A stretch of 60,609 bases of DNA from Terrimicrobiaceae bacterium (GCA_041737265.1 JBGSSC010000475.1:1-60609), one strand, 5' to 3'; positions 13,385 through 29,329 are shown, numbered from the stretch's first letter. Numbers and translations are program-made. The notes: generated from the letters alone by a model not told the origin.

Positions 13385-13734
13385 GGGTTGACGCCGGAAG
13401 CACCATCATCCGCCTCGAAGCCCAGCGAGATGGCATCGAGGACTATTATACCTCGTCAGCCGATGCCATATCGGTTGCCGGGAGCGAGCTGGATTCTACG
13501 TCTTCCTCGTCGCAGCCTTCGGCCAACGCCGAACCGCTCTTTCTGATTGTCAACAATAGTCGGAACATCGAACCCAGTGCATTTAAGTCCGTATCCGTAA
13601 ACGATGGCTATCCGGCCGACCCGAATAATCTCGTCGTTGAGGGGGCTAAGATTTCACCTGGTTTACAATTTAAACTTCAACAGTCCGGACTCGGACAACC
13701 CAGCCGACGATATCGCCTAGTGCCTCTCGGTTAA
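13385..13734 (+). pseudogene. mosaic relic: DUF4091-gene 3' fragment fused to PATR-gene 3' fragment (frameshifted)
   Basis: 13385-13455 (VDAGSTIIRLEAQRDGIEDYY) matches 11185-11255 of the DUF4091 gene (VLDGPVSSIRLEAQRDGIEDYEY). 13456-13734 (SVAGSELDSTSSSSQPSANAEPLFLIVNNSRNIEPSAFKSVSVNDG...) matches the PATR C-terminus at ~5800-6083. The last ~25 codons match only after a +1 shift (RFHLVYNLNFNSPDSDNPADDIA* vs KFRLVYNANFNGPGSDRLANDIA). Confidence 0.75.
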
Positions 13735-13785: not shown

Positions 13786-16700
13786 ATGATAAAACTATAC
13801 GCCCTCAGCTTTGCCGTCTTTTGCCTAGTCGCCTCCGGTTGTGATCGCAAACCCGAGCCATCCGAGAAGCCTGTCGAGCCGCAGAAGACGGAGACAAACC
13901 CAGACGATGGTAAAAAAGCGCTCACGGTTCCGGTCATTCCGAGTTCCTCCTTTGAGCAGGGCGCCGATGGCAAGCCCCTCGGATGGAGCGGGGTCGGAAA
14001 AGTGGCTTGGAGTCAAGGTGATGCAGCCGACGGCACCGGGTATGTCTCTGTTTCCTCCGGCATTGCCTCCAACGAGGCAGAGGGAGTCTCGGGTGAAATC
14101 GGCTGGCTGAGCGATCCGGTGAGCCTGATGCCTGGAGTCGCTTACGAACTGCGCTTTCGCTGCCGTTACCGTCCAGAGAATCTCTTTGCTCCAGCCAATG
14201 CTTTTGTGGGACCGGAATGTGCCCGGCTCCTCATTCCCTTGGAGGCCTCTCAACTGGTCTCGCCTTGGCGTTCCCACTCCGTGCGCTTCGTCGCCCCGGC
14301 TGCGCCTCCCACTAATGGTCAGCGGATTTTTCTCGGGCAATATCAGCTCAAGGGCACAATCGATTACGATGGGATCGAATTGTATCCCATCAAATTGGCC
14401 GAGTCGTCCGTCGATGGGATGTTGCTCGGACAAGGTGAACGCATCACAGGAAATAATTACACTTTCACGGCTCCCTTCGGCGATAAAACGTTTCGCAATG
14501 TCAGCCGGGCATTGGAGTCGTGTAACAACGTCTTCCACGAAAACCGCTGGCGGTTCAGCAACCCGGGTGACAGCGTCGTGTATCGGCATGAAATCGCTGG
14601 ACGCAAGCAACTCTCTGCCGCGCTCTCTCTGAGCGTCATGTTCCACGAAACAACGAGTTGGGGACTCGGCGTAGAGGTCTCAACCAATGGCAAAGACTTC
14701 CGGCAGGTCGCCACTATTAAACAAGGAAGCCCGACTAAGGTGGCGATTCCCGCGGACTTGTTGCCGGCGTCCACGGTATGGGTCCGTTTGAGCAATGACA
14801 CCTCGGATCCTTCCAAGCCGGTGTTTTTTCAAGTGCCCGGCTATGACTACACCGCGACTCTGGATGGAGCTCCAGTCATAGCGACCGGCCAGACGTCCGC
14901 GTTGACGGTGCTGGGCGAAGATGCGGCAGTTGAGGTTCAACCGCTGGTATCCAATTCCTCGCAGGCCGTCTTCTCACTGACCGCCCGCAACGTGGGAAAA
15001 GAGCCCATCGAAATCTCTCCCACGTTAACGGTGAGCCACGATGATTCTGAGGGAAAAGCTTACAGCGGTGTTCCGGCGAAATTGGCCCCGGGCGAAACGG
15101 CGAACGTGGCAATCCCTTACTCCACCGACGCGGCGGGCTTTTACAAACTTCAGTTCAGTCTCGGAAAAAATCTCAACACCCGCCTGGCGACCACGACCTT
15201 CGTGCCGATCATCGATGCCAACAACTATGGCGAGTTGCTTCCCTCGGCTTCACCGGGAGTTGGACTCTGGTGGGCATCGTCGGGTTGGAAAGTCAACCAA
15301 ACGCGCCCGCTCCCCACAGCCAAGGGTGAGGCGGTTCGAATCAGTGTGGCTGGCAACGAGGCTGAGGCCGCTCAGATCGTGGTAAGGCCCGACGCCGCAC
15401 TCACTGGTCTCACGGCCACCGTCGGAGAACTGCGCACCGAATCCGGGGCGGGGCTTCCTGCGGACGCCACGGACGTGCTGAGGGTAGGATATGTGAACGT
15501 AGAGATCGCCTCCGACGAGTTCGGTAGTGTAGGCAACTGGCCAGACCCACTCCCTCCGTTAAAGAAGGATGGAATCAATGTCCCTGCGGGCCAGAACCAG
15601 CCGCTCTGGATTCAGGTCAAGGCTCCAGCTAACACTCCTCCCGGCGTGTATCGCGGCCAGATCACCGTTAATGCCGACGGATTCGAAAGCAGCGTTCCAT
15701 TGGAGGTTGAGGTTTATGGATTTTCCCTTCCGGACACCACGACTTGCCGGACATTGTTCGGGCTCAACGCGGGACGCATTTGGGACTATCAGCGCCTCCA
15801 GAGCGATGCCGACAAGCGCACCGTCTGGGCCAAATATATGCGCCTCTTTAGCGATCATCGGATCAGTCCCTACGATCCTGCGCCAGTCGACGGTTTTACT
15901 TATCGATTCCCGGTCGGCCACGATTTCTGGGACGGAGCAAAAATCTCCGACGCTCAGGCGCACGACGGAACGAAGTCTTTGTTGGTTGAAGATTCGAGCG
16001 ATTCAGCGAATCCCCAAGTTTACAGCGTCAAGCCGATCGGCATCACAGGGAAACCGCTCCAACTCAGCCTGTGGTATCAAACGGAAAAGGCGGATCAACC
16101 AGCCCTGGTGGTCCTAGGATTCCTCAACGGCGCAGGCCAACAACTACCGGGTAAAAATATTCTCTTCGAGCTCCCAGCCGCAGCGTCGTGGACACGTTTT
16201 GAACAGGCGATCCCGAGTGTTCCTGCGGGGGCGACGGCGCTACGCATCTATCTCCAGGCCTCCCCTTGGACGGAAAAAGGCGAGGCCCTTGGCACCCTTC
16301 GGGTCGACGAGATTTCGTTGAAGGACTCCGGCAACGCCGAGGAACTCATCGCCGATGGAAGCATAGAGACCGGAAGGTCGCCGGGGAATTCGACCGAGGT
16401 TGTCTTTGATTGGGCGGCGTGGGATGCCGCCATGACCGAGGCGATGGACGTTTACCACTTTAATTCCTTCCTGCTAAGTGTTCCAGGCTTGGGTAGCGGC
16501 ACCTTCCACGACAAAGCCGTGGGCTCACTCGCCGGTTATGCCATGGGAACGCCCGAACACCGAGCACTCTTCCGCGCGTGGTGTGCCGCCGCCCGCTCGC
16601 ATCTGGAGGCCAAGGGGTGGTTGGATAAGGCGGTCTGCTATCCATTCGATGAGCCTGCGGAAAAGGACTATCCCTTTGTCATTGGGCAGTTGCGTCTCCT

Positions 16701-17430
16701 GAAAGAGGATTTTCCAGGACTGCGGCGCATGGTGCCAATGAATCGTGGTTCCGCTCCCGACTTTATCAACTGGGTGGACTATTGGTGCCCGATTTTGAGC
16801 ACCTTTGATCCGGTGTTTGCCAGGGAGCGCCAGAAGGCAGGTGACATTTTCACCTGGTATATCTGCACCGCGCCCCGCGCCCCCTACATCGCTGCTTTTA
16901 TTGACCGCCCTGCCACCGATCTACGCGTTTGGCTCTGGCAAAGCTGGCTGGCCAACATCGAAGGCATTCTCATCTGGGAATCCAATTGGTGGACGAGCCC
17001 CACGGCCTACCCGGATGCTCGCCAAAATCCTTATGAGGACTCCATGAGTTGGGTCGGGGGTTACGGGGTGGCGACCGGAGAGAAACAGCCATGGGCCGCT
17101 GGAGACGGACGACTTATCTACCCGCCGGAAGCCTGCTTCGACGGTGGCACTGGTCCGGTGCTTGATGGACCCGTCTCGTCCATCCGCCTCGAAGCCCAGC
17201 GCGATGGCATCGAGGACTGTGAATACCTCGTCATGCTCAAAACACTGCTGGCTGAAAAACGCGGGACGCTGACGCCCGATCAAGTCGCACGCTATGAAAA
17301 ACTGTTGGAAGTGCCCGGAGAAATTACCGCCGGCCTGACCAGCTATACGACGAGCCCTGAGCCAATCGCAGCCCGCCGTCAGGAAGTCGCCACAGCTCTG
17401 GAAGAGCTAACCAACAGTCCCGCTCGCTAA
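13786..17430 (+). CDS. large surface lipoprotein, CBM4/9-like plus DUF4091 (GH123-like), copy 2
   Basis: Lipobox FCLVASG-C. It is colinear with and highly similar to 7786..11454 over the full length. The inserted CBM-like module (~16000-16100) is the most diverged segment. Confidence 0.7.
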   Translation: MIKLYALSFAVFCLVASGCDRKPEPSEKPVEPQKTETNPDDGKKALTVPVIPSSSFEQGADGKPLGWSGVGKVAWSQGDAADGTGYVSVSSGIASNEAEGVSGEIGWLSDPVSLMPGVAYELRFRCRYRPENLFAPANAFVGPECARLLIPLEASQLVSPWRSHSVRFVAPAAPPTNGQRIFLGQYQLKGTIDYDGIELYPIKLAESSVDGMLLGQGERITGNNYTFTAPFGDKTFRNVSRALESCNNVFHENRWRFSNPGDSVVYRHEIAGRKQLSAALSLSVMFHETTSWGLGVEVSTNGKDFRQVATIKQGSPTKVAIPADLLPASTVWVRLSNDTSDPSKPVFFQVPGYDYTATLDGAPVIATGQTSALTVLGEDAAVEVQPLVSNSSQAVFSLTARNVGKEPIEISPTLTVSHDDSEGKAYSGVPAKLAPGETANVAIPYSTDAAGFYKLQFSLGKNLNTRLATTTFVPIIDANNYGELLPSASPGVGLWWASSGWKVNQTRPLPTAKGEAVRISVAGNEAEAAQIVVRPDAALTGLTATVGELRTESGAGLPADATDVLRVGYVNVEIASDEFGSVGNWPDPLPPLKKDGINVPAGQNQPLWIQVKAPANTPPGVYRGQITVNADGFESSVPLEVEVYGFSLPDTTTCRTLFGLNAGRIWDYQRLQSDADKRTVWAKYMRLFSDHRISPYDPAPVDGFTYRFPVGHDFWDGAKISDAQAHDGTKSLLVEDSSDSANPQVYSVKPIGITGKPLQLSLWYQTEKADQPALVVLGFLNGAGQQLPGKNILFELPAAASWTRFEQAIPSVPAGATALRIYLQASPWTEKGEALGTLRVDEISLKDSGNAEELIADGSIETGRSPGNSTEVVFDWAAWDAAMTEAMDVYHFNSFLLSVPGLGSGTFHDKAVGSLAGYAMGTPEHRALFRAWCAAARSHLEAKGWLDKAVCYPFDEPAEKDYPFVIGQLRLLKEDFPGLRRMVPMNRGSAPDFINWVDYWCPILSTFDPVFARERQKAGDIFTWYICTAPRAPYIAAFIDRPATDLRVWLWQSWLANIEGILIWESNWWTSPTAYPDARQNPYEDSMSWVGGYGVATGEKQPWAAGDGRLIYPPEACFDGGTGPVLDGPVSSIRLEAQRDGIEDCEYLVMLKTLLAEKRGTLTPDQVARYEKLLEVPGEITAGLTSYTTSPEPIAARRQEVATALEELTNSPAR
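13810..17409 (+). repeat. direct repeat copy 2 (~3.6 kb) of the DUF4091 lipoprotein gene
   Basis: See copy 1 (7828-11430). The copies are separated by the DUF5107 gene and the mosaic relic. Confidence 0.85.
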
Positions 17431-17512: not shown

Positions 17513-17630
17513 GAACTGCGCGAAAAGACAAGAAGGTATTCGCATCTTGCCATTGTAGCATCAATGCGCAGGGGATAAGTTTTTGTCACTGTTTTGGCAA
17601 TCCCTCGAACCCATCTCTCACCCAAAAACT
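17513..17630 (+). promoter_or_regulatory. conserved upstream element, copy B
   Basis: It aligns with copy A over ~115 nt. The dyad CAAGA-N11-TCTTG is at 17529-17549. TTGTAG (17553-17558) -N17- TAAGTT (17576-17581). GGGGAT (17571-17576) and ATCCC (17600-17604) are inverted. The leader ATCCCTCGAACCCATCTCTCACCCAAAAAC matches copy A's ATCCCTCGAACGCAACTCGCACCCAAAAAT. It lies upstream of ATG 17648. Confidence 0.5.
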
Positions 17631-17647
17631 CCAAAAGTTCTCTTCTT

Positions 17648-18403
17648 ATGCAAACATCCTTAAATCATTGGGCACTGCCCTTGGCCGTCGCCATGGTGTT
17701 GATTTCCACGGGATTATCGGTCCGGGCAGAAGCAGATGGGCTTATTCTGAACTACGATTTTAGTCAGGCGGCGGGGGAAACCGTTGAGGATTTGTCCTCC
17801 TCGCAGCATGACGGTGAGCTTATGGGAGGGGCCTCGATTGCGGACGAAGGGACGTCGGGAAACGTGCTGGAGCTGGATGGTGTGTCAGGGATGGTGACGA
17901 TCTCGGGGCTTGATGGTTTGCGAATCAAGGACGGTCTCACCATTTCTGCAGTCGTGCGCTTTGACGACGCCGACTCCCCGGATTCCGCCGGAATGATCAT
18001 TTGGAAACCGGAGTGTTTCCTCTTCGGACGCAACGGCGAGGGACATCTTTATTTTAACATCTATTCCGGTGTGGATCCAAACACCGATGACGGTTGGCTG
18101 GCTTCGCCGGTGAGCAACGAACCCATTCCGACTGGCGAATTCGTCCATGTCGCCGTCACCGTTGAGAAGGTCAATGACGGAGCAGGCGTTAACGGCTACC
18201 AGTCTCTGCTATGGGTGAACGGACAGATCGTGACTGATAAGAAGTATAACAACGTGGTCTTTCCGGAGAATGATAATCCGGTGGATATCGGGAAAGGCTG
18301 GGGCGGACCGTGGTTTTTCAAGGGCCAGATGCAGTCGATCCAGATCTATGATCGCGCGTTGACGGCGCAGGAGATTCAGGACGCCTCTAACGATAGGAAG
18401 TAA
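17648..18403 (+). CDS. secreted stand-alone LamG (concanavalin A-like lectin, Laminin_G_3-type) domain protein
   Basis: ATG 17648 gives the signal peptide MQTSLNHWALPLAVAMVLISTGLSVRAEA. LamG pattern: VLELDGVSG...GLTISAVVRF...FVHVAVT...LWVNGQIV...VDIGKGWGGPWFFKGQMQSIQIYDRALTAQEI. About half its residues are identical to the N-terminal domain of the next gene. Confidence 0.75.
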   Translation: MQTSLNHWALPLAVAMVLISTGLSVRAEADGLILNYDFSQAAGETVEDLSSSQHDGELMGGASIADEGTSGNVLELDGVSGMVTISGLDGLRIKDGLTISAVVRFDDADSPDSAGMIIWKPECFLFGRNGEGHLYFNIYSGVDPNTDDGWLASPVSNEPIPTGEFVHVAVTVEKVNDGAGVNGYQSLLWVNGQIVTDKKYNNVVFPENDNPVDIGKGWGGPWFFKGQMQSIQIYDRALTAQEIQDASNDRK

Positions 18404-18444
18404 GGGACCCCTGACTTTTTAGGATTCGATTTGCGCCGCCGCCG

Positions 18445-21400
18445 ATGATTCGAAGACCATCCATTATGAAATTCTTATTCCTCGCATTTTTCGCGACGAC
18501 TTTAACCTTGCTCGCTGCTGCGCCGGATGAGGGGCTGGTTCTCAGCTATGACTTCGGACAGGCGGACGGCGGAAGAGTGAAGGATTTGTCTCCGCGCGGG
18601 AACGACGGAAAGCTTGAAAGAGGTGCCAAGCTGGAGGTGGACCGTCATGGGACGGTGCTGGAGTTGGATGGCGTCACGCAATTTGCCTCCGTCCCCTCCC
18701 TCACGCAGTTCCAGGTGGATCGGGGACTGACGATCTCGGCTGTCGTTCGCTTTGAAGATAAGAACCCGCCTCCGGATGACGGGGATATGATTCTGTGGAA
18801 ACCGGAAACCTTCCTGCTGGCGCGCGATGCGAATGGGCATCTTTATTTTAACCTCAATGACGGCAAAAACTGGGTGGGTGAAGTCCGCAGCACGGCCAAG
18901 CTGCCTGTGGGTGAATATGTCCATGTCGCCGCGACCGCTGAGTATGTGGACAACACCGCGCAGGGATTCGCCGGCTACCGGGTCAATCTCTGGATTAATG
19001 GCGAACCGGCGGGCAGCGGGCAATTCAATCGGGCGACCTTCGCTAAGAATGCTCAGCCGGTGGACATCGGAAAAGGGTGGGGCGGTCCGTGGTTTTTCCG
19101 AGGGCGCATCGCGAGCGTGCAGCTCTATGACCGGGCCTTGACCCAAGGCGACATCCTCGCTCGAGCTGCCGGGAGTCTTTACGTCCAAGGCGTCAAAAAA
19201 AGCGCGCCGATTCCAGCCGCAGTGCAAGCCAGACTGGACGCTCTCACGGCCGGAGCCGGGTCACCCGAAGAAGCCTGGATCATCGGAAACATCGCCCGGT
19301 TGATGCGCGATCTACGCTTTGCAGCACTCAGCGAGTCACTTCTCGACCGGGCCGAGGCGATGCAGGCCTCCAAGCTCGGCACCGCACCAAATTGGTGGCA
19401 AAAGATCACTTCGCTCTTCCAGACCAGCATACCTTGGGATGCCGTCGCATGGTGGCAGGCCAATGGCAGTCCTGGACTTCGGGTCGTTCAGGGCAGTCAG
19501 ATGCATGTTGCCCTGGCGGTGACATCGACCCACTGCGAAGTAGCTGGGATTTTTGACTCCGTGGCCCAGCGTGAATTGCTTGGAGAGATGGGTTCCTTGT
19601 GGACGGCGGAAGGACGCGACGCTTCTGGAAACAAAATCCGGATCGCTAGTGAAGAAGTTCCATCTGCCTTCTCACAAGAGCCTCAGCAAAGCGGGGACTC
19701 AACTCGGTTCACGATCACTTGGAAACATCCCGCGACACCAGGCGCGCCCTGGGGTTTCTCCGCCCGGAGCGAAATGAAGCTCCAGAATCGCCGCCTCTCA
19801 ATGAATCTCAAGGTGGACAACCAGTCTCCCGAGGTTGTCCTCGCGCAAGTCGTCTTCCCGGCCATTGCCTTCCGCCAATTAGAACAAGGCGTGGATACCC
19901 TGCTGGCTCCGGCATTTTATGGAGAAACCCGTCCGGATTTCGTGCGCAAAAACCTGTCCTATGCGAGAACCTACCCCGGTGCCGGTGCCACCATGCAATT
20001 CGGTGCCCACTACGATCAAAAGGGCGGGGTCTATTTCGGCGCGGAAGACCCCGAGGCGCAGGCCAAGCTCTTCACGATCGAAGGAAAATTTGGCCAGCTC
20101 GCGACCTCGTGGCGCTGGTATGTCGGCAACCACGGCAAGGGCGGCAACAGTTTTTCGACCAGTGGCTGGGCGGCGGTCGAGGGATTTGACGGGGATTGGT
20201 TTGATGCCGGGCGGATCTATAAACGTTGGTTGGAACGCGAAGCACCGTGGTTCCCGAAACTCGGCCGTCCGGACTCCCCGCAGTGGTATAAAGAAAACAC
20301 CGCCATCGTCCAAGGATTTGGCCAGTTTCTGGATGACTTTGTTTCCTATTTTGGCCTTCCGTTTATCTACCACGACAATGATTGGGACAAAATCGGCGGC
20401 GGATCGGCGATGGGACCCTGGCCCACAGCGGTTGCCAAGGACAATTATCGCTCGGAGGTGGAGGCACGTCAGCGAAAAGGAATCTCCACCCGGTCTTATA
20501 TGAATTACCGGATCTGGTCGCAGTCGGATCCCGCCTACCAACAAATCGGCCAATCATCCGCCGCAAAAAACCCCGATGGCAGCCTCGGCAGCACCGAAGA
20601 ATATGCCGCCGTCGGCGGTGCACCTGGACTTCACGCCGTGATGTGTCCCGCCGCACCGGCGTATCAGGCCAACCGTGGTGCGCTGTTAGAGTATATGGCC
20701 AATCAAGGCATAGGGGTGATCTACATGGACCAGATGGGCGCCGGAGAGCCTGTGCTATGCTTCGATCCCACGCACGGCCATTCCTTGGGTGGCGGGGAGA
20801 GCTGGATGAAAGAAGGCTACTGGAAATACGTCCCCGGGTTTCGACAGAAGCTCAAGAGTGCTCACCCGGAGCTAGCGATGGATACGGAGGATATGGCAGA
20901 GCCCGTGGCTAACCTTGTTGACGGATTCCTGCCATGGCGCACCTTTGCGGTCAGTCCCGGTGCGACCCCTGTGCCGCTCTTTCTCTCCATTTACGGAGGC
21001 CGCGTTCAGTTCACCGGCAAGAGCTTCGATGGTAATGATCAAAAGGCCTTTTTCGCCATCACCGGCGAGCAACTCGTCCAAGGTGAGCAACTCGGCTACA
21101 TCTGGCCAAACAAAATTCTCATGAGCGAGCCGCGCAGCGCTTTCTTCAAGCGGCTGGCCCTGACCCGACTGGCCATGCTGCCGTTTTTTAACGAAGGGGA
21201 AATGGAGCGGCCTCTCACTTTTAAAGGCCTGCCCACCTTCGTTTCCGATTGGGGCTACTATGGTCCTCGGCTGATGGAATCCCCAGCCATCATGCATGCC
21301 GTGTGGAGAAGCCCGGCGGGGGTCGCCTTGGTGTTTGTCAACGTTACTGATTCGGAGGTCAGCGCAGAAGTGGACTTTGATGGCCAACGCCATGGGCTTG

Positions 21401-22044
21401 TCGGGGAGAATCTCACATTACGCAAGGCGGATGGATCCGCCGCTGATCCGCAGCCGGTCGGAAGCCGTTTCAAACAAACCCTGCGTCTGCCGCCTTACAC
21501 GCCGGAGGTGTGGATCATCAGCCCGTCTGACGCCCCCGCACAACCGGCACTTGATCGCGCCATGAAAGGCCTGAGCGCCGCACGTGCCATCCCGATGCCG
21601 ACCCAAAACGCGAATGCGCCTCTCTCAGGCCCAGTAAATGCCCGCTACCTTCGTATCGAAGCCCGCTACGATACGATCCAAATGGCAGAATTCGAAGTCC
21701 TGTCCGGCGGGGTCAATGTGGCCCTCAATAAACAAGCAACGCAATCCTCGCAACGGGGCACTTCCACAAACGCCGGCCCGATGAAGGCCGTGGACGGCAA
21801 CACTCGTTCGCCGCTGACGAACGACTCGGCAAACTCGATGAGTGCGACCGATTTTCGGGCAGAGGAATGGTGGGAAGTGGACCTCGGACAAAGCTTCCCA
21901 ATAGACTCCCTGCGCATCCATGCCCTTTACAGTGAACCGCTGCACGAGCGCCGGATCAAGGCCCTCGATGACAAACGGGAAGTGGTTTGGGATACCGAAA
22001 TCCACCAGTCGAAACCGCTGCACGACATCACGCTTCCACAGTAA
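18445..22044 (+). CDS. secreted multidomain protein: N-terminal LamG, large uncharacterised putative glycoside-hydrolase core, C-terminal F5/8-type-C/fucolectin-like domain
   Basis: Signal peptide MKFLFLAFFATTLTLLAAAP (ATG 18445 or 18466). The LamG block ends ...GKGWGGPWFFRGRIASVQLYDRALT. The core carries CFDPTHGHSLGGGESW (~20755-20805). The C-terminal NVALNKQATQSS...AVDGNT...WWEVDLGQSFPIDSLRIH (21715-22041) is a discoidin/fucolectin-type signature. Confidence 0.65.
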   Translation: MIRRPSIMKFLFLAFFATTLTLLAAAPDEGLVLSYDFGQADGGRVKDLSPRGNDGKLERGAKLEVDRHGTVLELDGVTQFASVPSLTQFQVDRGLTISAVVRFEDKNPPPDDGDMILWKPETFLLARDANGHLYFNLNDGKNWVGEVRSTAKLPVGEYVHVAATAEYVDNTAQGFAGYRVNLWINGEPAGSGQFNRATFAKNAQPVDIGKGWGGPWFFRGRIASVQLYDRALTQGDILARAAGSLYVQGVKKSAPIPAAVQARLDALTAGAGSPEEAWIIGNIARLMRDLRFAALSESLLDRAEAMQASKLGTAPNWWQKITSLFQTSIPWDAVAWWQANGSPGLRVVQGSQMHVALAVTSTHCEVAGIFDSVAQRELLGEMGSLWTAEGRDASGNKIRIASEEVPSAFSQEPQQSGDSTRFTITWKHPATPGAPWGFSARSEMKLQNRRLSMNLKVDNQSPEVVLAQVVFPAIAFRQLEQGVDTLLAPAFYGETRPDFVRKNLSYARTYPGAGATMQFGAHYDQKGGVYFGAEDPEAQAKLFTIEGKFGQLATSWRWYVGNHGKGGNSFSTSGWAAVEGFDGDWFDAGRIYKRWLEREAPWFPKLGRPDSPQWYKENTAIVQGFGQFLDDFVSYFGLPFIYHDNDWDKIGGGSAMGPWPTAVAKDNYRSEVEARQRKGISTRSYMNYRIWSQSDPAYQQIGQSSAAKNPDGSLGSTEEYAAVGGAPGLHAVMCPAAPAYQANRGALLEYMANQGIGVIYMDQMGAGEPVLCFDPTHGHSLGGGESWMKEGYWKYVPGFRQKLKSAHPELAMDTEDMAEPVANLVDGFLPWRTFAVSPGATPVPLFLSIYGGRVQFTGKSFDGNDQKAFFAITGEQLVQGEQLGYIWPNKILMSEPRSAFFKRLALTRLAMLPFFNEGEMERPLTFKGLPTFVSDWGYYGPRLMESPAIMHAVWRSPAGVALVFVNVTDSEVSAEVDFDGQRHGLVGENLTLRKADGSAADPQPVGSRFKQTLRLPPYTPEVWIISPSDAPAQPALDRAMKGLSAARAIPMPTQNANAPLSGPVNARYLRIEARYDTIQMAEFEVLSGGVNVALNKQATQSSQRGTSTNAGPMKAVDGNTRSPLTNDSANSMSATDFRAEEWWEVDLGQSFPIDSLRIHALYSEPLHERRIKALDDKREVVWDTEIHQSKPLHDITLPQ

Positions 22045-22056
22045 TTTCCAAGTTCA

Positions 22057-22101
22057 GAATACGCAAAAAGACAAGACAATATGCGCATCTTGCCATTGTG
22101 A
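22057..22101 (+). promoter_or_regulatory. conserved upstream element, copy C (core only)
   Basis: GAATACGCAAAAAGACAAGACAATATGCGCATCTTGCCATTGTGA matches the A and B cores, with the dyad at 22072-22092. Downstream similarity is lost, but a GATAAATTTTTTT box like copy A's -10 region reappears at 22164-22176, just before ATG 22181. Confidence 0.45.
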
Positions 22102-22180
22102 AAGACGCAGCGAAGGAAGAAATTGATGTCGTTGGCGTAGCATCATCCATTCGAAAAATAGAAGATAAATTTTTTTCATA

Positions 22181-22960
22181 ATGACGATCTCGACTCCCCT
22201 AAAAAAAACCAATCAAAAAGCTGTCGGTCGGTTCATGGAGTGGAATTCCTTTTCAAAAGTCCGCCAGTGCGAGCGGGCCTTTACCTTGATCGAGCTTCTG
22301 GTGGTCATCGCCATCGTGGCGATTCTGGCCGCCTTGCTGTCGGCCGGGGTTTCCCGAATGAAAACCACGGCCAATGCTGCCAAATGCATCTCCAACTTGA
22401 GGCAGCTCTACGTTTGTGCACAGGCTTTTTCTTCGGACAACGATGGCTATCTGCCTCAGGCGGCCTGGTATTTGCCCAGGGATTTCCTTGGCATGGCCCA
22501 GTTTAAGTATCCCTCTCTGGTCGATTATGGTGCGGATAAAATCAAAGGGTGTCCCGAATCGCCCAGTCTGTCATTGACCAGTTATGGAATGAACAGTCGT
22601 CTGATCCCGTATACCTACTTTGGGGATACGGATTGGGGTCCGGGCCAGGACCGCTACTACTACCGCAGTCCCTTCAGATGGGCCAATATTACTAAGCCTG
22701 CCCAAACCCTCCTCTTCAGCGATACGGGTGCCGATTCCGTTCAATCGGCCTACTATTTTGTGAGCGGCCTCTCTGAGCTCACCGGGATAATCGATGTGAA
22801 AGGACGGAATGCGTGGAGGCACAACGGAAAATTCAATGCGGTCTTTTGCGACGGCCATGTTCAGGCCTGCGCTCCTGATGACCCAAACATCGCTACCTTC
22901 CCTTACCCGTGGATCTATAATGCGCCCCCCAGCGGATTTAATGATTTCATCACCCAGTAA
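22181..22960 (+). CDS. prepilin-type N-terminal cleavage/methylation domain protein of the H-X9-DG family (pseudopilin-like)
   Basis: Class-III-signal-like ERA-FTLIELLVVIAIVAILAALL and C-terminal HNGKFNAVFCDGH (H, nine residues, DG). The alternative ATG 22235 gives a 15-aa leader, similar to the 13-aa leader of the paralog at 44612. Confidence 0.8.
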   Translation: MTISTPLKKTNQKAVGRFMEWNSFSKVRQCERAFTLIELLVVIAIVAILAALLSAGVSRMKTTANAAKCISNLRQLYVCAQAFSSDNDGYLPQAAWYLPRDFLGMAQFKYPSLVDYGADKIKGCPESPSLSLTSYGMNSRLIPYTYFGDTDWGPGQDRYYYRSPFRWANITKPAQTLLFSDTGADSVQSAYYFVSGLSELTGIIDVKGRNAWRHNGKFNAVFCDGHVQACAPDDPNIATFPYPWIYNAPPSGFNDFITQ

Positions 22961-22975
22961 GGCTGAATAAACGTT

Positions 22976-24457
22976 ATGCTAGATAATCACTGTCTCAACG
23001 GCTGGTGGGATTTCCTGCCGGTTGAAACAAGCACACAAATTCCCGCCGAGGTTCCCGTCACCGGTTGGAACCCTGAAGCCGTTCTCACACCTTCGTGGTG
23101 GACGAAATCCCGTTGGGCAGTGCGCCGTCGCGGGGAGCGGAGTTATCGTTGCCTGCCCAAGACCGATACCTATCACGAGGACGACGAGTTTCTCTTCGAT
23201 GCCTACGGCTACCCTTTGGAGTGGGCGCAAAAGCGCTCGGGCTGGCTGCGGCGCGAATGGGTGCAGGCGAAACAACCCGATGGCCAGCGTTCGGTGCTAA
23301 CCCTCAAGGGCGTAATGCCCCGTGGCGCGCTTTTCGTGAATGGCCGTTTCGTCTGCGAACACGATGATCCTTGCATGCCCTGGACGGCGGATATCACCGC
23401 ATTCTTGCGTGAAGGCCAAAACGAATTGGCCGTCTTCATCGCCGACTTCCGCCGCGACGAACGTGGTCGCCCGCTGGTGCCGTGCGGCGCTGAATTTATC
23501 ATAACCGCCCATTGTGGGATAACGGGCGATGTTTTCCTGGCGACATATCCGGAGGTCTCCGTATCCAGGACGCAGATTCGCGCGGTCGATCCCCACACCG
23601 TGGATGTTGTCTGGCAGGTGCGTAATGATAGTGCCGAATGCGTCACGGTTACCCTGAGCCCCGATCTCGCCGAATGGAGCCGTGATCTCGATGTGTGGGC
23701 TGCGGTCACCGCCTTGCCTCTCGATTCTATAAAACTGGAAATTCCCGCCGGATCCTGCGGCGAGGCCAGCGCGCGAGTGCATCATGCCAAGGCGAAGCTT
23801 TGGGATACCACTTCGCCCAATCTCTATTCGTTGCGCACCCGGCTGGTAGTGGATGGGCGTGAGGGAGATCGCGCGACGACTCGCTTTGGTTTCCGCACGA
23901 TCCGCATCGAGGGCAAAGACATCTTGGTCAACGACCATCCCGTGCACTTTTTCTCCGACTGGGGACATAAGGCCACGCCCTTCCATCTCACCGAATCTTG
24001 GATTCGGCAATGGTTCGGTATGATGCGCGACGCCCACATGAATCACACCCGCCTCCATGCCTATGTGCATGACGAGCGGTTTCTCGAACTGGCCGATGAG
24101 CTGGGGATCTTTGTGACGGTCGAAACCAGCATTCACGGATCGGGCGGCGAACAGGCTTCGGATTCGCCGATCTATTGGGAAGCAGCCCGCAAGCAGGTCC
24201 ACGGGATGGTGAAACTTTTTGCCCATCATCCCTGCGTGGTGCTCTGGTCGGCGGAGAACGAGATGCGTTGGAACCGCGACACAACGCTGCTCTACAAAGA
24301 AGAGCTGCCGAAGATCCGTCGGCTTTTCAATGAGCTAGATCCGACGCGTCCGGCCTATCACGATGGCGACACCTCGCTCTGGGACGAGAGCGAGCTGGAG
24401 ATTATCAACCGCCACTACGGCAAAGAGGTCGCCGGTTACGGCTGGTGGGATCAGTAG
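22976..24457 (+). CDS. GH2 glycoside hydrolase, N-terminal portion (sugar-binding, Ig-like and first part of the TIM barrel), ended by an in-frame TAG
   Basis: GH2-type N-terminus LNGWWDF, LYSLRT..., FGFRTIRIEG, and acid/base block VVLWSAENEM. It stops at TAG 24455-24457, in the same frame as the next ORF. Confidence 0.75.
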   Translation: MLDNHCLNGWWDFLPVETSTQIPAEVPVTGWNPEAVLTPSWWTKSRWAVRRRGERSYRCLPKTDTYHEDDEFLFDAYGYPLEWAQKRSGWLRREWVQAKQPDGQRSVLTLKGVMPRGALFVNGRFVCEHDDPCMPWTADITAFLREGQNELAVFIADFRRDERGRPLVPCGAEFIITAHCGITGDVFLATYPEVSVSRTQIRAVDPHTVDVVWQVRNDSAECVTVTLSPDLAEWSRDLDVWAAVTALPLDSIKLEIPAGSCGEASARVHHAKAKLWDTTSPNLYSLRTRLVVDGREGDRATTRFGFRTIRIEGKDILVNDHPVHFFSDWGHKATPFHLTESWIRQWFGMMRDAHMNHTRLHAYVHDERFLELADELGIFVTVETSIHGSGGEQASDSPIYWEAARKQVHGMVKLFAHHPCVVLWSAENEMRWNRDTTLLYKEELPKIRRLFNELDPTRPAYHDGDTSLWDESELEIINRHYGKEVAGYGWWDQ

Positions 24458-24478
24458 CGACCGCTGCACGCAGGTGAA

Positions 24479-26872
24479 ATGTCGATCCATCACCTCATGG
24501 GTGCCAACAACACCGTAGCATTGGGTGGCGACCGGGTGTTTGAAAACTACGCCAACCTCGAGCGCTCGGCCTCCGAGGACGCGCTATTGATTATTGAAAG
24601 CGCGCGTATTCGCGGGGTCTGTCTGCTCGCGCCGTGGAACCTCTCCTGCAACGTCAACCCGCGCATGGATGCCGAGTTGGTGCGCATCGATTACCCGGAC
24701 TGGTCCGCGCCCGGCGCGAAGCCTCTCTTTGTGCCGCCGCACTCGAGTGAGTTCGCATTCTGGAAGCCGGAAGAAAAGGGCTACACCGCCTCGGTGAGTT
24801 TCGATCTCATCCGGCAATCCTTCCGTCCGGTCGCGGTGATTGATGAATCACGCCGTTCGCAATACCACGCAGGCGCCGCCGTGGTGCGTCATCTCCACGT
24901 GGTCAACGACACCGCCAGCGATCTCACGGGCACGGTCCGGGTAAAATTGGGTAACCGCCTGGTTCACGAGTCCACCGTCAGCGTGGAGCGCGGTCGCGTG
25001 CAATGCGTCGATGCCGCTTGGACGGTGGCCGACGTTTCCACCAGCGGCGAGCAGGCCTACGACGTATCTTTTGATTCCGATGGCGGCAGCGACTCGTGGG
25101 AACGCCCTTGGTTTGTAGCCAAAGAGTTCGCTTCCGACCGCCCTTTGCGAAACCTCGCGGTGACGCTCGTCGGGACCGATGCGCTCGCTGAAACCTTGAG
25201 CAAACTGGCAGCGCGCGTCCGCTCCGTCGCGACCTTGGAGGAGATTAATCCCGCCTCCGATCGCGTGGTGCTCGTCGCGCCTTTTGCGATCAAAGCCACT
25301 TCGGCGGATCGCCTGCGCGAATTGCTCGATGTCGGCGTGCGCGTCGTTCTGCTGGAGCAGCGGACAAGTGTCTTTCCGGGCTCACCGATGAAGGAACAGT
25401 CGGTGCCGACCGCGTGGAAGCGTTCGCCGCTGCACCCGGTTTTTCACAACATCGGTGAAGAGTTGCTCAAGTTCTGGGGCGACACACCTTACCCTGCGCT
25501 GGCGGGCGATCACTTTGTTATCCACAGCGCCTACACCAAGGGAAGCGGACGTCATGCCTCTTGTCTGGCTGACACCGGTGACGGCGGCTTTGGCTATGGC
25601 GATCTCGAGGGACAGGCCATTCTGGAACTTGAGGACGGCGCGGGGCTATTGTTAGCCTGCCAGTTCCTTATTGGTGAGCGATTTGGTGACCTTCCGGTGG
25701 CCGAGCTCCTCTTGGTTAACCTCCTCCGGCGTGCCGCCGACTGGAAGTTGAGCCCGAGCGCAACGGTGGAGATGACCAAGGAGTTTTCACCGTCGCTGCT
25801 GGAGGCGGTGAATGAGGGCGCAACGTTGATTGTCAGTAATCCCACCGAAGCCGCGCTGGCGGAGTGGGCTCAAGCTCTCGCCGTAAAGCTCCAAACCCGC
25901 ACGGATCCATCTGGCCTCTATCAAGCGGTACGCACGGCAGAAGGGCACCCGCTTGTGGAAGGCATCTCACAATACGACCTCAGCGGCATCGAGACGTGGA
26001 CTTACAGCTGGCACAACGTCCCGAACAAACCGGTCGCAGCGCGCATGATACTTCCCGCTGCGCGTCTCGAGGAGTTGCTTGTCACCGCGCCGCGTTCCGC
26101 CCTCCGTGAACTCTACGTCTATGACGGCAGTTCGGAAATGCTCCGCGCTCACACCGCCAGTCGCTTTTGCTATGGCACGGAGTTGGCGGATTTTGGTCTG
26201 CTCGCAGGTCTCGTTCGCCACGGCCGGGGGAGGGTTGTTTTTTCCCTGCTGGATGATACCGCCGAGGCTCCGGTTCGTTTGGGGCGTGTGCTTCATGCGT
26301 TGCAGAGAAACGTCGGCGGGCGCGTTGCTGACCGTGTTTGGGATGTGCCTGCAGTTGAACCGGAAAATCGCAGCGAAGGTTTCCCGACCAAGCTCCATCG
26401 CTGTCTCGAACCGCAAAATCAAGAATCCCTTCAGCGCCTCGTGGCTGCCACCAAACCGTTGCAGGATTTCTTCGGCTCACGGCAGATGCTCACCCAGTCA
26501 AGCTGGGAAGAAATCGAACTGCCCGACGGTCGCCTCATCGCGGGAACCGAACTCCCGGTGATCGTGGCAGGCACGGTCAACTCCCCTCGCCCGCGCAAAA
26601 ACGTCGAGATCAGCGTGCTCAACTGCCCCAATCCGGAAGAGCAGGTTTTTTGTGATATCGAAGGAGACGGGAAGCTCACCTTCTTCCTCAATAGCGTCGA
26701 GATCGCCAGCGCCAGTTTAGACGGTGGAGTTGTTACAGTTCCCGACATAGAGCTGGAGGCTGGCAATAATCATTATCTGATCCACTGGCACCCAACCAAA
26801 CCCGACGCCAAAATCCGGATGCAATGGCGCAATATCATGCGAAAGCCTGAAAAAACGCTCCAATTTTTTTAG
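24479..26872 (+). CDS. GH2 glycoside hydrolase, C-terminal continuation (same frame as 22976..24457)
   Basis: 24458-24478 reads RPLHAGE in frame and then MSIHHLMGAN, resembling the LacZ nucleophile block RPLILCEYAHAMGN. The Glu codon GAA at 24476-24478 lies between the two ORFs. About 790 aa of accessory domains follow. Confidence 0.65.
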   Translation: MSIHHLMGANNTVALGGDRVFENYANLERSASEDALLIIESARIRGVCLLAPWNLSCNVNPRMDAELVRIDYPDWSAPGAKPLFVPPHSSEFAFWKPEEKGYTASVSFDLIRQSFRPVAVIDESRRSQYHAGAAVVRHLHVVNDTASDLTGTVRVKLGNRLVHESTVSVERGRVQCVDAAWTVADVSTSGEQAYDVSFDSDGGSDSWERPWFVAKEFASDRPLRNLAVTLVGTDALAETLSKLAARVRSVATLEEINPASDRVVLVAPFAIKATSADRLRELLDVGVRVVLLEQRTSVFPGSPMKEQSVPTAWKRSPLHPVFHNIGEELLKFWGDTPYPALAGDHFVIHSAYTKGSGRHASCLADTGDGGFGYGDLEGQAILELEDGAGLLLACQFLIGERFGDLPVAELLLVNLLRRAADWKLSPSATVEMTKEFSPSLLEAVNEGATLIVSNPTEAALAEWAQALAVKLQTRTDPSGLYQAVRTAEGHPLVEGISQYDLSGIETWTYSWHNVPNKPVAARMILPAARLEELLVTAPRSALRELYVYDGSSEMLRAHTASRFCYGTELADFGLLAGLVRHGRGRVVFSLLDDTAEAPVRLGRVLHALQRNVGGRVADRVWDVPAVEPENRSEGFPTKLHRCLEPQNQESLQRLVAATKPLQDFFGSRQMLTQSSWEEIELPDGRLIAGTELPVIVAGTVNSPRPRKNVEISVLNCPNPEEQVFCDIEGDGKLTFFLNSVEIASASLDGGVVTVPDIELEAGNNHYLIHWHPTKPDAKIRMQWRNIMRKPEKTLQFF

Positions 26873-26994
26873 GACCTTTTGATTTCATTTTAAAAATCAC
26901 GGTCGCGGCCGACCCGAAGATATCACTGCAAAATACTTTCCAGAAAATTACCCGGTTGCTGCGGCGATCAGGGGGCTCCCTCGCGACTCGCCTC

Positions 26995-28290
26995 ATGAAA
27001 AATTATCCCGTCATATACGACTCCACTTATCTCACGCATGGCGACGGACGTTATCCGCTTGCCGACATCACGCCTCTTCAAGACTCCGCTCGGGCCTCAG
27101 TCATCACTGATGAATTTCTTGGTCAGCATTGGAAGAAAATGGTTCGCCAACCCATCGGCAACCTCAAGCGGCCGTATGTGGTTCCGGGCGTGTATGAGGC
27201 CCTTTGGGACTGGGACAGTTTCTTTATTGCCTGCGCCATGCCGGAGGAATCGATTCCTTATGGCCAGGGCTCGATCCTGAACCTCCTCGACGGGGTGCGC
27301 GAGGATGGACGCCCACCCAAGATGGCGTCACCCAACGGTGCTTATCTCTACGAAGCGCATCCCTACCCATTGCATGCCCAATTCTGCTATCTCATCGCCG
27401 ACAGGATGGGTCATTTTGAATGGGTGGATGCCGTGTGGGAAAAGTTGCTCAAGGTGGATGACTGGTATGAGCGCGAAACCATGGTCCGAGGCGGCTACCC
27501 CGTTTGGCTGGGACTCCATGGAAACGGCATCGACAACAACCCTGCCGTTTATGGGCGTCCGCCGAAGTCGAGCGCTGGGGTGGATCTTGCCTGCTGGCAT
27601 TATCGAGACCTCCGCGCTATGGCCAAACTGGCCGATCAACTCAATAAGCCGGGTGCCGAGCAATTCCGGGAGCGCGCCAACAATCTCGGTCGTCTGGTGC
27701 GCACCCGCTACTGGGATCAAATGGACGATTTTTTCTACAACATCGATTGCCTAACCGACAAGGGAGAGACCGCGCTTCAAGGGGTCACCTGGGAGACTTT
27801 TCTCAAGTTCCGCAACTGGGCTTCTTTCTTTCCCCTCTGGGCCCGGTTGGCCACTCCGGAGCAGGCTCTTGCCCTGCGCAACCGGATGATGGATGCCAGG
27901 GAGTTTCTCGCGCCGGCCGGGTTGCGCTCGCACAGCGCACGGGATCCGATTTACCACAACACTGCCACCGGCAACCCATCCAACTGGCAGGGGCCGGTCT
28001 GGGGGCTGAGCACGTTCCTTTCGGCCTACTGCCTCAACCACCATGGATACCGCGAAGATTCCATTGACCTTGCCTCGCGCCTGCTCAAGGTTTTTGCCGC
28101 TGACGTCGAAACAAACAGGTGTTTACACGAGTTCTATCATGGCGATACCAGCCAGCCACTGATCAATCCGGGTTTCCTAAGCTGGAACTTGCTGGCTCAT
28201 GGCCTCATGAATAACTTGCAACGCACCTTCGATCCGACCACGGGGTCGCTGCTCGACGAGCATGTGGGATCTGAGCCTCCTGCAGAATGA
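26995..28290 (+). CDS. (alpha/alpha)6-barrel glycoside hydrolase, GH63/GH37-like (clan GH-G)
   Basis: ATG 26995 (the upstream TTG is less likely). Motifs YEALWDWDSFF, GLHGNGIDNNP and GNPSNWQGPVWGLSTF are reminiscent of trehalase/GH63-type barrels. No signal peptide. Confidence 0.55.
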   Translation: MKNYPVIYDSTYLTHGDGRYPLADITPLQDSARASVITDEFLGQHWKKMVRQPIGNLKRPYVVPGVYEALWDWDSFFIACAMPEESIPYGQGSILNLLDGVREDGRPPKMASPNGAYLYEAHPYPLHAQFCYLIADRMGHFEWVDAVWEKLLKVDDWYERETMVRGGYPVWLGLHGNGIDNNPAVYGRPPKSSAGVDLACWHYRDLRAMAKLADQLNKPGAEQFRERANNLGRLVRTRYWDQMDDFFYNIDCLTDKGETALQGVTWETFLKFRNWASFFPLWARLATPEQALALRNRMMDAREFLAPAGLRSHSARDPIYHNTATGNPSNWQGPVWGLSTFLSAYCLNHHGYREDSIDLASRLLKVFAADVETNRCLHEFYHGDTSQPLINPGFLSWNLLAHGLMNNLQRTFDPTTGSLLDEHVGSEPPAE

Positions 28291-28312
28291 TAATTCAGCG
28301 CAACAACACACC

Positions 28313-29329
28313 ATGAAAATCGAAACTGAAAGCGCCAGCGGACGAGGCGCACAACGCCTGAGCATCGAGAAACTCCAAAGCTGGGAGGCTTTGAAATTCG
28401 GGATGTTTATCCACTATGGCATGAGCACCTACACGGGTTCGGAACTGCCCGACGGAAGTCACCCATCCACCCTCTACTCGCCGGATAAGCTCGATGTGGA
28501 CCAGTGGGTCTCCGTTGCCCGCGACGTCGGGATGAAATACGCTGTGCTCACCACGAAGCATGTTGCAGGTCACTGCCTCTGGCCGACCAAGCTCAATGAC
28601 TACCACGTCGGCACCAGCGGCAACCAAACCGATGTGGTCGAGGCCTTCGTCAAGGCCTGTGAAAAACGCGGGGTGCTGCCGGGCTTCTATTATTGCTCAT
28701 GGGACAACCACAATGTCTTCGGCTCGCAAACCCCGAGCCACGTGGCGGACTGGGAGCGTGCGCAGTTCGGGCTCATCCCCGATACCCAGCTTTCCTTCAC
28801 ATCGCGCGCTTATGTGGATTTCCAAAGCGCGCAGATTGAAGAACTCCTCACCCAATACGGCCCGGTCGGTGAAGTCTGGATTGATATTCCAAGCGTCCTA
28901 CCACGATTCTATCGCCACGAGCTCTACAATCAGATTGCCGGGCACCAACAGCAGTCGGTCATCATGATGAACAATGGGATCAGCGACGGCTCCATCTATC
29001 CCATCGCCAAAGCCTGGCCGGCAGACATCATCGCCATTGAGCGCTTTCTACCCAACAGCCACACCGGCCATGTCAAATGGCGCGATATCGAGGGTGAAAA
29101 TTATTACATGCCCGGTGAAGTCTGCGACCCCATTGGACGCGAATGGTTCTTCACCGAGGAAGACCAGCCCCGCAGCGACGAGGAACTGCTCGGCATGTAT
29201 CTCGTGAGCATCAGCCGCGGCACGAACCTCCTCCTCGATGTCGGCCCCAACAAGCACGGCCTGATTCCGCAAAAGTATGTGGGTGCCCTGCAGCGGCTGC
29301 GAAAAAATCTCGACCTTCTCGGGGTGTGA
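28313..29329 (+). CDS. GH29 alpha-L-fucosidase (catalytic domain only)
   Basis: LKFGMFIHYGMSTY and AVLTTKHVAGHCLWPTK match the GH29 FG.F.HWG / KHHDGF blocks. ATG 28313 lies after the upstream stop at 28288-28290. No signal peptide. Confidence 0.75.
   Translation: MKIETESASGRGAQRLSIEKLQSWEALKFGMFIHYGMSTYTGSELPDGSHPSTLYSPDKLDVDQWVSVARDVGMKYAVLTTKHVAGHCLWPTKLNDYHVGTSGNQTDVVEAFVKACEKRGVLPGFYYCSWDNHNVFGSQTPSHVADWERAQFGLIPDTQLSFTSRAYVDFQSAQIEELLTQYGPVGEVWIDIPSVLPRFYRHELYNQIAGHQQQSVIMMNNGISDGSIYPIAKAWPADIIAIERFLPNSHTGHVKWRDIEGENYYMPGEVCDPIGREWFFTEEDQPRSDEELLGMYLVSISRGTNLLLDVGPNKHGLIPQKYVGALQRLRKNLDLLGV

Follow-up and report, generated by a model that had tools for sequence, protein, structure and literature searches.

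H-X9-DG prepilin-like genes beside exported LamG and PATR proteins in a glycan-utilisation region of a Terrimicrobiaceae bacterium

Why should a gene for a type IV pilin-like protein stand at the head of a run of glycosidase genes? The question is raised by positions 17513-29329 of a 60,609-nucleotide (nt) stretch of DNA from a Terrimicrobiaceae bacterium (GCA_041737265.1, JBGSSC010000475.1:1-60609), the whole of which is referred to below as the window. This region encodes two secreted proteins with LamG modules, a prepilin-like protein of the H-X9-DG (DUF1559) family, here called pilin1, and glycoside hydrolases (GH) of the GH2, GH63-like and GH29 types. A sequence-only reading of the window had proposed that such pilins may form or cap a short fibre which presents lectins and enzymes, or helps glycans across the outer membrane, as an analogue of Sus-like capture specific to the Planctomycetes-Verrucomicrobia-Chlamydiae (PVC) group. 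The best-supported interpretation of sequence and gene context is that the H-X9-DG gene is, in this lineage, a genuine co-regulated member of glycan-utilisation operons; likewise best supported, its specific relation would be to the exported proteins encoded beside it and not to the cytoplasmic glycosidases that it precedes here.

The H-X9-DG/DUF1559 family and its expansion have been described, without a demonstrated function, in PMC2754498, PMC10632474 and PMC8567305. Planctopirus limnophila has 68 paralogues, two of them essential (PMC10632474), and in Tuwongella immobilis the genes are evenly spread, often have genes for proteins bearing a type I or II signal peptide on their flanks, and yield products that co-fractionate with membranes (PMC8567305). 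In the literature searched, nothing was found that connects H-X9-DG genes with glycan loci or with exported partner proteins.

Pilin genes and their exported neighbours

The features given a strand in Table 1 lie on the + strand. Open reading frames (ORFs) were taken from translations, domains were assigned by Pfam and NCBIfam scans of 31 principal ORFs chosen from those of at least 200 amino acids (aa) in the window, and signal peptides were called by inspection only.

Two secreted LamG proteins followed by an H-X9-DG gene under the same upstream element were the core of the earlier observation, and Pfam, TIGR04294 and three copies of the element confirm it (Table 1). Both LamG proteins of the region have a type I signal peptide and the GH2, GH63-like and GH29 products have none; that the run of signal-peptide-less glycosidases starts 15 nt past pilin1 (spacer 22961-22975) also proved correct, the GH2 gene however being split by an in-frame TAG. 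The 1199-aa LamG-DUF6259-F5/8C protein is probably an enzyme. Laminin_G_3 (PF13385) scores 69-78 bits (cutoff 27.6) in three proteins of the window, each with a Sec or lipoprotein signal; in 3/3 the LamG module directly follows the signal peptide and the protein is encoded next to a pilin. The small LamG-only protein was considered as TafC, a haloarchaeal Tat-fimbria subunit, and rejected: the match reached 25 bits against a cutoff of 410 and reflects nothing beyond the common LamG fold.

The juxtaposition had been said to recur at 42121-48624, and it does so there as a DUF4838 lipoprotein, a second H-X9-DG gene (pilin2) and a lipoprotein with LamG and GH123_N regions. The pilin2 locus is not a recent copy of the first, because the two pilins share only 31% identity. 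Both H-X9-DG genes are placed between genes for exported lectins or enzymes and genes for cytoplasmic glycosidases, and the proteins flanking the window pilins are exported in 4/6 cases against a background of 7/29 (binomial p=0.03, a rough value, the positions not being independent).

Pilin1 is recognised by TIGR02532 (29.3 bits, cutoff 16.3), PF07963 (33.2 bits, cutoff 21.2) and TIGR04294 (26.1 bits, cutoff 19), and pilin2 by PF07963 (24.3 bits, cutoff 21.2) and TIGR02532 (27.2 bits, cutoff 16.3), without a TIGR04294 match. The family motif reads H-NGKFNAVFC-DG in pilin1, with the broader form RH-x4-N-x2-F-x-DGH and two conserved cysteines, and, by inspection, H-SGLANFFFL-DG in pilin2. The class III signals are ERA/FTLIELLVV (pilin1, with Glu at +5) and RHA/FTLIEVLTV (pilin2). 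Throughout 42 family members the prepilin N-terminus (F+1, T+2, L+3, E+5), two cysteines, an SNLRQL box and RH...N..F.DGH are invariant, the loops between them varying. Such an invariant N-terminus with Glu+5 argues for subunits that assemble into a pseudopilus, not for a plain membrane anchor. Equivalog models for GspG, GspH and GspJ give 17-26 bits against cutoffs of 65-89; for GspG itself (TIGR01710) the pilins score 23.4 and 25.7 bits against 88.85, with similarity in the N-terminal helix only. In the AlphaFold2 predictions a long helix at the N-terminus leads into a small head rich in beta strands; the full-length model (42 sequences) has pLDDT 69 and pTM 0.67, and the head-only model, from a deeper alignment of 144 sequences, has pLDDT 74 and pTM 0.79. 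As modelled, this head is not recognisable as a GspG/PilA head, a solute-binding fold or a lectin. The solved structure of the Akkermansia pilin-like protein Amuc_1102 (7DSZ) was absent from the PDB sequence matches and fold matches of the window pilins.

The pilin1 family is very large and very divergent, with at least 5658 matches at E<=1e-5 in a word-indexed search and 156,424 clusters at E<=1e-3 among 1.84 billion representatives, only 3 of which remain at E<=1e-30. Named relatives come from Verrucomicrobiae, Limisphaerales and Coraliomargarita. Two long members, one joining LacI to a pilin (P0300) and one a pilin2-like N-terminus to a C-terminal fragment of GH39 (P0138), were rejected as real fusions, being probably merged gene calls or deletions; both again put pilins beside sugar-utilisation genes.

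Table 1 Features of the window referred to in the text (whole-window positions)
Feature	Position	Strand	Remarks
Small secreted LamG-only protein	17648-18403	+	ORF from 17594, likely start M at 17648; signal peptide MQTSLNHWALPLAVAMVLISTGLSVRA; Laminin_G_3 (E 5e-19, Pfam)
Secreted 1199-aa protein	18445-22044	+	N-terminal LamG (Laminin_G_3), DUF6259, C-terminal F5/8 type C; type I signal peptide
Pilin1, 259-aa H-X9-DG prepilin-like protein	22181-22960	+	N_methyl; class III signal
GH2-type gene, about 1298 codons, without signal peptide	22976-26872	+	Listed as ORFs 22976-24457 and 24479-26872; in-frame TAG
GH63-like/MGH1-like glycoside hydrolase, without signal peptide	26956-28290	+	Pfam
GH29 alpha-L-fucosidase, without signal peptide	28262-29329	+	Pfam; likely start M at 28310
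Upstream element, copy 1	4681-4722	+	Ahead of PATR gene; core TGCGCA...GACAAGA-N3-TATGCGCATCTTGC
Upstream element, copy 2	17515-17556	+	Ahead of LamG-only gene
Upstream element, copy 3	22058-22099	+	Directly ahead of pilin1
DUF4838 lipoprotein	42040-44601	+	Lipobox LTLFGC; immediately upstream of pilin2
Pilin2, second H-X9-DG prepilin-like protein	44612-45370	+	Between two lipoprotein enzymes
Lipoprotein, N-terminal LamG and GH123_N-like region	45448-48624	+	Pfam
Secreted PATR (beta-strand repeat) protein	4851-6083	+	ORF from 4704, likely start M50 at 4851; signal peptide MKTQKQSVLQRSFFYAALFALLTQAAHT
Relic of H-X9-DG pilin 3' end	6111-6209	+	...SPYPWFYNAPPS...; matches pilin1 residues 225-257
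Relics in spacer before second GH123	13407-13717	–	GH123 3' end 13407-13446; PATR 3' end 13462-13717
Collapsed GH2...GH29 relic	48949-49386	+	GH2 codons 1-28 (79% aa identity), 37-nt gap, GH29 codons 251-355 (91%)

Conserved neighbourhoods, a common upstream element and the wider PVC group

Orthologues of pilin1 on metagenome contigs, with 53-68% identity, occur in two arrangements. On contigs L085-L089 the order is a divergent AraC-type regulator with a periplasmic-binding-protein (PBP) domain, a PEP-CTERM protein of about 230 aa, PATR, pilin, a lipoprotein GH123 that is 80-85% identical to that of the window, a 770-aa protein and GH20. This is plainly the counterpart of window positions 4681-13312, where the pilin has decayed: the PATR gene of the window is the orthologue of the gene preceding the pilin in these related loci, and the relic at 6111-6209 occupies the position of their intact pilin. 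On L001 and L003 the genes after the pilin encode, in turn, a 681-aa protein, a major facilitator superfamily (MFS) permease that shares 51% identity with window 536-2572, and an MGH1-like GH. The order PATR then pilin1 is found on L001, L085, L087 and L088 with gaps of 3-92 nt, and the window has the same pair with the pilin as a relic. Pilin2 orthologues (63-82% identity) come after a DUF4838 lipoprotein or small signal-peptide proteins and before MFS, GH78 or GH106 genes. A pilin followed by an MFS permease and cytoplasmic GHs recurs on L090, where the pilin and permease genes have no intergenic gap, and on L091, L001 and L003.

The LamG-only protein has two orthologues (52-56% identity, L093 and L094), each encoded directly after an H-X9-DG pilin and before an orthologue of the LamG-DUF6259 protein; on L093 the pilin and LamG genes share 4 nt, and L094 has the same order. 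The pilin concerned, whose identity to pilin1 and pilin2 is only 31-35%, represents a third paralogue, so that the LamG pair has kept a pilin neighbour regardless of paralogue and order. The tight or overlapping junctions with PATR and LamG genes suggest a physical partnership. No relatives were returned by a metagenome scan with the LamG-DUF6259 alignment. Taken as gene context, these neighbourhoods support the view that pilin genes in this clade are conserved parts of glycan-utilisation loci and not random insertions.

Just upstream of the pilin on several contigs are genes whose products have PEP-CTERM-type ends, e.g., EPSTW-LLLVGSLTVMVVL-RRRR (L085 5712-6386, L001 5485-6240, L092 2-2170, L090 5006-5335, L093 1511-2743); the signals point to putative exosortase-dependent surface proteins in the same cassettes. 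On L003 a 114-aa ORF directly upstream of the pilin (6445-6789) resembles a decayed pilin (ELLVAISILV...SASNLRQL), and by its sequence would be a second case of pilin decay beside an intact copy.

The upstream element, 45 nt long, is present in exactly 3 copies in the 60.6 kb, against 0 expected from shuffles, each copy preceding an exported-protein or pilin gene; the leader of the LamG-only gene resembles that of the PATR gene over about 110 nt. Weak homologues lie on L085 (5575-5619), L086 (1986-2030) and L088 (1406-1449), in the short divergent spacer that separates an AraC/PBP regulator from the first operon gene. A position next to this regulator would fit a promoter or operator; none of the three window copies has such a regulator beside it. 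An Rfam scan of the window found no known RNA, so the element is not a known riboswitch or small RNA. Neither a sigma-54 nor a normally spaced sigma-70 promoter is convincing by eye, and a consensus promoter scan lists no site there. The element was also rejected as a terminator: on the minus strand it scores as a terminator-like hairpin, yet no minus-strand gene ends there.

Does the association extend through the PVC group? A scan of genome contigs gave an arbitrary sample of 80 loci across PVC phyla, with distant family members (identity <=34%) among the matches listed; crude ORF calls yielded 39 H-X9-DG genes, and the Pfam census lists the 25 commonest families per scan. The 70 immediate neighbours of these genes hold 120 Pfam families, none in more than two proteins, and the 29 same-strand neighbours likewise show no recurring family. 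The neighbours are mixed, with ribonucleotide reductase, aminotransferases, WD40 proteins, a sulfatase, GH30, MFS and a TonB receptor. There is thus no general link to LamG or to any family of carbohydrate-active enzymes (CAZymes), and the link of the pilins to both is lineage-specific. What is seen is an excess of signal peptides: by a home-made heuristic, they occur in 15/31 same-strand genes within 300 nt and in 68/273 distant genes of the same loci (one-sided Fisher p=0.007), with no excess among all +/-1 neighbours. The same-strand excess agrees with the remark on Tuwongella immobilis cited above (PMC8567305) and fits an export or display role as well as a glycan-capture role. Three of the 14 same-strand downstream neighbours are predicted small lipoproteins of 124-178 aa (L038 7224-7757, L042 4895-5266, L045 2755-3162), and a small lipoprotein may be a recurrent partner elsewhere in the family.

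Relics, interruptions and other genes of the window

The window is full of duplications and relics, and its present gene order is therefore derived. The pilin relic, earlier placed at 6084-6215, was located at 6111-6209 by its match to pilin1 (Table 1). The collapsed GH2...GH29 relic directly follows the LamG-GH123_N gene of the pilin2 locus, and the GH123 genes at 7786-11454 and 13786-17430 are recent paralogues with 91% nt identity at the 5' end. The description of a pseudopilin leading a GH operon is accordingly right as to order, which is present, and needs amending in that this arrangement is a derived one.

An in-frame TAG at 24455-24457 cuts the GH2 gene, and a 797-aa ORF (24479-26872) beginning RPLHAGEMSIHHLMG, which the earlier reading had not mentioned, continues the same frame. 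The sequence around the stop reads ...GWWDQ, stop, RPLHAGEMSIHHLMG, the part after the stop being by eye a GH2 catalytic-nucleophile-type motif, and the Pfam match of the upstream ORF to the GH2 TIM barrel ends halfway along the profile. The two ORFs are one gene of about 1298 codons. The TAG could be a sequencing error, a nonsense mutation (hence a pseudogene) or a site of read-through; homologues gave no support for the last, the PDB alignments ending before the TAG and no orthologue being found among the related loci fetched, and a metagenome scan with the C-terminal ORF found no relatives.

The remainder of the window encodes four MFS permeases, a GntR/PBP regulator, cytoplasmic exo-glycosidases (GH20, GH13, GH78, a second GH2 and two GHL6) and lipoprotein GH123 enzymes. 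Together, these permeases, lipoproteins and exo-glycosidases provide a plain route: surface cleavage, MFS import and cytoplasmic finishing. About half of the genes are CAZymes, so a CAZyme neighbour of a pilin is expected here by chance. The absence of SusC/D, TonB-dependent receptors and ABC binding proteins, already noted for the 60 kb, held among the 31 principal ORFs (families TonB_dep_Rec, Plug and SusD included), and no PilM family protein was found in the Pfam scans of the window.

At the left edge (9-2572), a homologue of the 681-aa protein is represented by its C-terminal 208 aa, and a 678-aa MFS permease (536-2572) comes next. This is the pair that follows the pilin1 orthologues on L001 and L003, and another pilin gene may lie just outside the window. 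The permeases at 536-2572, 38717-40213, 49822-51264 and on L090 (10843-12342) share the N-terminal motif ...VGTLxYxxAGLxxLFxWLLWGDFCF...; they belong to a single paralogous group (39-52% identity) whose members accompany different sets of GH genes.

A three-tier reading, its rivals and known systems

Gene content, motifs, the common element and the conserved neighbourhoods are direct observations, and their best explanation appears to be a three-tier glycan-utilisation regulon. The first tier would comprise the exported LamG-only and LamG-DUF6259-F5/8C proteins and, elsewhere in the window, the PATR beta-helix and the lipoprotein GH123, DUF4838 and LamG-GH123_N enzymes. The H-X9-DG type IV pilin-like protein would be the second tier, and the third would consist of the MFS permeases and the glycosidases without signal peptides (GH2, GH63-like, GH29, GH20 and others), which would finish imported oligosaccharides in the cytoplasm. 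In such a regulon, the pilin would be cleaved by prepilin peptidase and inserted into a short pseudopilus by machinery of the type II secretion or type IV pilus-like kind, with its genes elsewhere; it would act as the dedicated partner of the adjacent exported proteins, aiding their crossing of the outer membrane or holding them at the cell surface, and the whole set may be switched on together through the 45-nt element. Processing of the pilin, its assembly, its contact with LamG and PATR proteins and the direction of transport are what we infer here. By analogy, the pilin could push proteins out in the manner of a type II secretion system (T2SS), hold them on a fibre in the way that PilY1 is held by minor pilins, or as in the lectin pilins of Streptococcus sanguinis, or capture glycan itself. 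Because related genomes keep the arrangement, the family is probably tied to exported proteins; the narrower proposal, that the pilin is a co-regulated envelope partner of its exported neighbours with a role in their export or display, we put forward tentatively, at somewhat short of an even chance. A stronger version, in which each H-X9-DG paralogue would be a cargo-specific adaptor that recognises adjacent exported proteins, here via the LamG module or the PATR beta-helix, and loads them onto a common T2SS or type IV pilus-like machine to be secreted or displayed at the surface, we consider unlikely as it stands.

Several results weigh against a role of the pilin in export or display. No secretin, assembly ATPase, platform protein or prepilin peptidase was found in the window or in the related loci examined. 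Matches of the pilins to PDB entries by sequence or fold are confined to the N-terminal helix, two Foldseek searches of the models against PDB returned nothing at E<=1e-3 and thus no relative of the head, and no fusion of a pilin with LamG occurs among the long family members. PF07596 is unmatched by both pilins (Pfam, E<=0.01) while homologues at 30-37% identity often carry PF07963 with PF07596, which marks pilin1 and pilin2 as divergent, short relatives (252-259 aa). The copy at 6111-6209 has decayed while the adjoining PATR-GH20-GH123 genes are intact; a relic amid an intact operon means that the pilin is dispensable there or is supplied by the copy at 22181. The GH2 gene downstream of pilin1 is interrupted by a stop codon. 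Since the related loci belong to closely related genomes, part of the order may be inherited and not selected, and the signal-peptide counts are small and depend on crude ORF calls and a home-made heuristic.

Inherited order is the core of the view that there is no specific link at all: a scattered, fast-duplicating family would inevitably acquire CAZyme neighbours, shared ancestry would account for the order and segmental duplications for the spread of the element. The size and divergence of the family (the cluster counts given above), genes 'evenly spread around the genome' in T. immobilis (PMC8567305), the duplications and relics of the window, a dead pilin included, and the lack of a recurring Pfam family beside H-X9-DG genes in the PVC sample all speak for it. 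We nevertheless hold it to be improbable, since three paralogues, only 31-35% identical, each stand beside LamG or other exported proteins with tiny gaps or overlaps while order and other content differ, the LamG pair retains its pilin neighbour despite a different paralogue and order, signal-peptide neighbours are enriched both in the window (p=0.03) and PVC-wide (p=0.007), and orthologous operons have kept the element at their head.

If the pilin does have a specific function, this could also lie in uptake. A retractile pseudopilus formed or tipped by H-X9-DG pilins may bind polysaccharide and pull it through an outer-membrane channel into the periplasm, much as a competence pseudopilus takes up DNA, and leave the import of fragments to MFS permeases. 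Neither SusC/D nor a TonB-dependent receptor was found among the ORFs scanned in the 60 kb, pilin orthologues are repeatedly followed by MFS and cytoplasmic GH genes (L090, L091, L001, L003), and precedents exist in the fibres of Planctomycetes (PMC5394234) and, as described in PMC13174399 and PMC12418764, in the MUL loci of Akkermansia. Set against these are the functional mixture of the PVC-wide neighbours, in which no carbohydrate family recurs and the recurrent trait is a signal peptide and not a sugar function, a head without a recognisable carbohydrate-binding fold, and the lack of sequence similarity to Amuc_1102, 7DSZ not being among the matches; an uptake fibre therefore seems to us a doubtful reading. 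More doubtful still is a membrane-tethered periplasmic binding protein, of which the helix would be a mere anchor and the head would bind oligosaccharides and pass them to an adjacent MFS permease. The Pfam name of PF07596, SBP_bac_10, carried by homologues, suggests such a function, several orthologous loci have an MFS permease gene directly after the pilin, and family members of Tuwongella fractionate with membranes (PMC8567305). A plain anchor, however, needs neither Glu+5 nor the rest of the family-invariant class III signal, Foldseek shows no similarity to any solute-binding protein fold, and neither window pilin adjoins an MFS gene. To our knowledge, MFS permeases do not use binding proteins in any case.

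Known systems offer partial likenesses to an envelope partner of exported proteins. In the Pul secreton of Klebsiella, pilin-like subunits are co-encoded and co-regulated with a surface lipoprotein, pullulanase, and the T2SS pseudopilus contacts its cargo. The window pilins are similarly co-encoded with exported polysaccharide-degrading proteins, but no GspD, GspE or GspF genes are nearby, each locus has one pilin instead of a gspG-K set, and there would be hundreds of paralogues per genome. PilVWX-PilY1 tip complexes, and PilC of Streptococcus sanguinis with its ConA/LamG-like module, are cases of a fibre presenting a non-pilin or lectin module. LamG-only and PATR genes adjoin or overlap the pilin gene in a comparable way; here, unlike in those systems, the lectin-like module is a separate Sec-exported polypeptide and the locus has neither pilus machinery nor other minor pilins. 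Compared with the TIGR04294/PF07596 family, the window pilins have the class III signal with Glu+5, the AKCxSNLRQL box, two cysteines and the C-terminal RH...DGH; they differ in being short, in missing PF07596 and, for pilin2, in missing TIGR04294. With Sus-like polysaccharide utilisation loci of Bacteroidota, the window shares a substrate-regulated cluster of surface lipoprotein glycosidases, non-catalytic glycan-binding proteins, an importer and intracellular exo-glycosidases; it differs in having no SusC/SusD or TonB-dependent transporter among the ORFs scanned, in MFS import and in a final hydrolysis that is apparently cytoplasmic and not periplasmic.

Within the PVC group itself, dextran binds to pili-like fibres that emanate from crateriform structures of Planctomycetes (Boedeker et al. 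2017, PMC5394234), and pilus-based glycan acquisition has been proposed for these bacteria (PMC5394234, PMC12673574). Polysaccharide binding linked to a fibre and a proposed Sus-free uptake are the points of likeness (PMC5394234); the Planctomycetes fibres are known from microscopy, with no link drawn between their subunits and H-X9-DG genes, whereas the evidence from the window is gene context. According to PMC13174399 and PMC12418764, pilus-containing MUL loci of Akkermansia are needed for mucin uptake, with genetic support (Davey et al. 2023), and aquatic Akkermansiaceae are proposed to use a type IV-like pilus for glycans rich in fucose. As described there, MUL1 and MUL2 resemble our case in belonging to Verrucomicrobiota and in connecting proteins of the pilus type with the acquisition of fucose-rich glycans, from host or algae, without reliance on SusC/D; MUL2 is a fixed four-gene locus (Amuc_1099-1102, with PilM) and, unlike the pilin genes of the window, does not lie within individual GH operons. 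A PVC-specific analogue of Sus is hence not new in concept; the conserved position of H-X9-DG genes within glycan-utilisation operons, as observed here, is absent from the papers found. The original proposal is supported in part: conservation of the pilins in the glycan loci of this clade stands, and generality does not, the CAZyme and LamG link being lineage-specific. The finding adds a useful and testable lead to a theme already known and does not amount to a new kind of system.

Few paralogous families of Planctomycetota, Verrucomicrobiota and Lentisphaerota are as large as that of the H-X9-DG/DUF1559 proteins, and the locus bears on how these abundant polysaccharide degraders capture and import glycans without SusC/D. 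It is a small testable case, with one pilin, one or two exported LamG or PATR partners, a common operator and a defined set of hydrolases pointing to fucosylated glycans that contain GalNAc or GlcNAc. Were the adaptor version true, the hundreds of paralogues per PVC genome would be a modular addressing system for the exoproteome, and in CAZyme-rich Verrucomicrobiota they would form the outer, substrate-capturing tier of such loci in place of SusC/D-associated surface proteins. If the pilin is needed for export, display or uptake, the family would gain a function, and one linked to the pilus-dependent glycan acquisition of Akkermansia and Planctomycetes.

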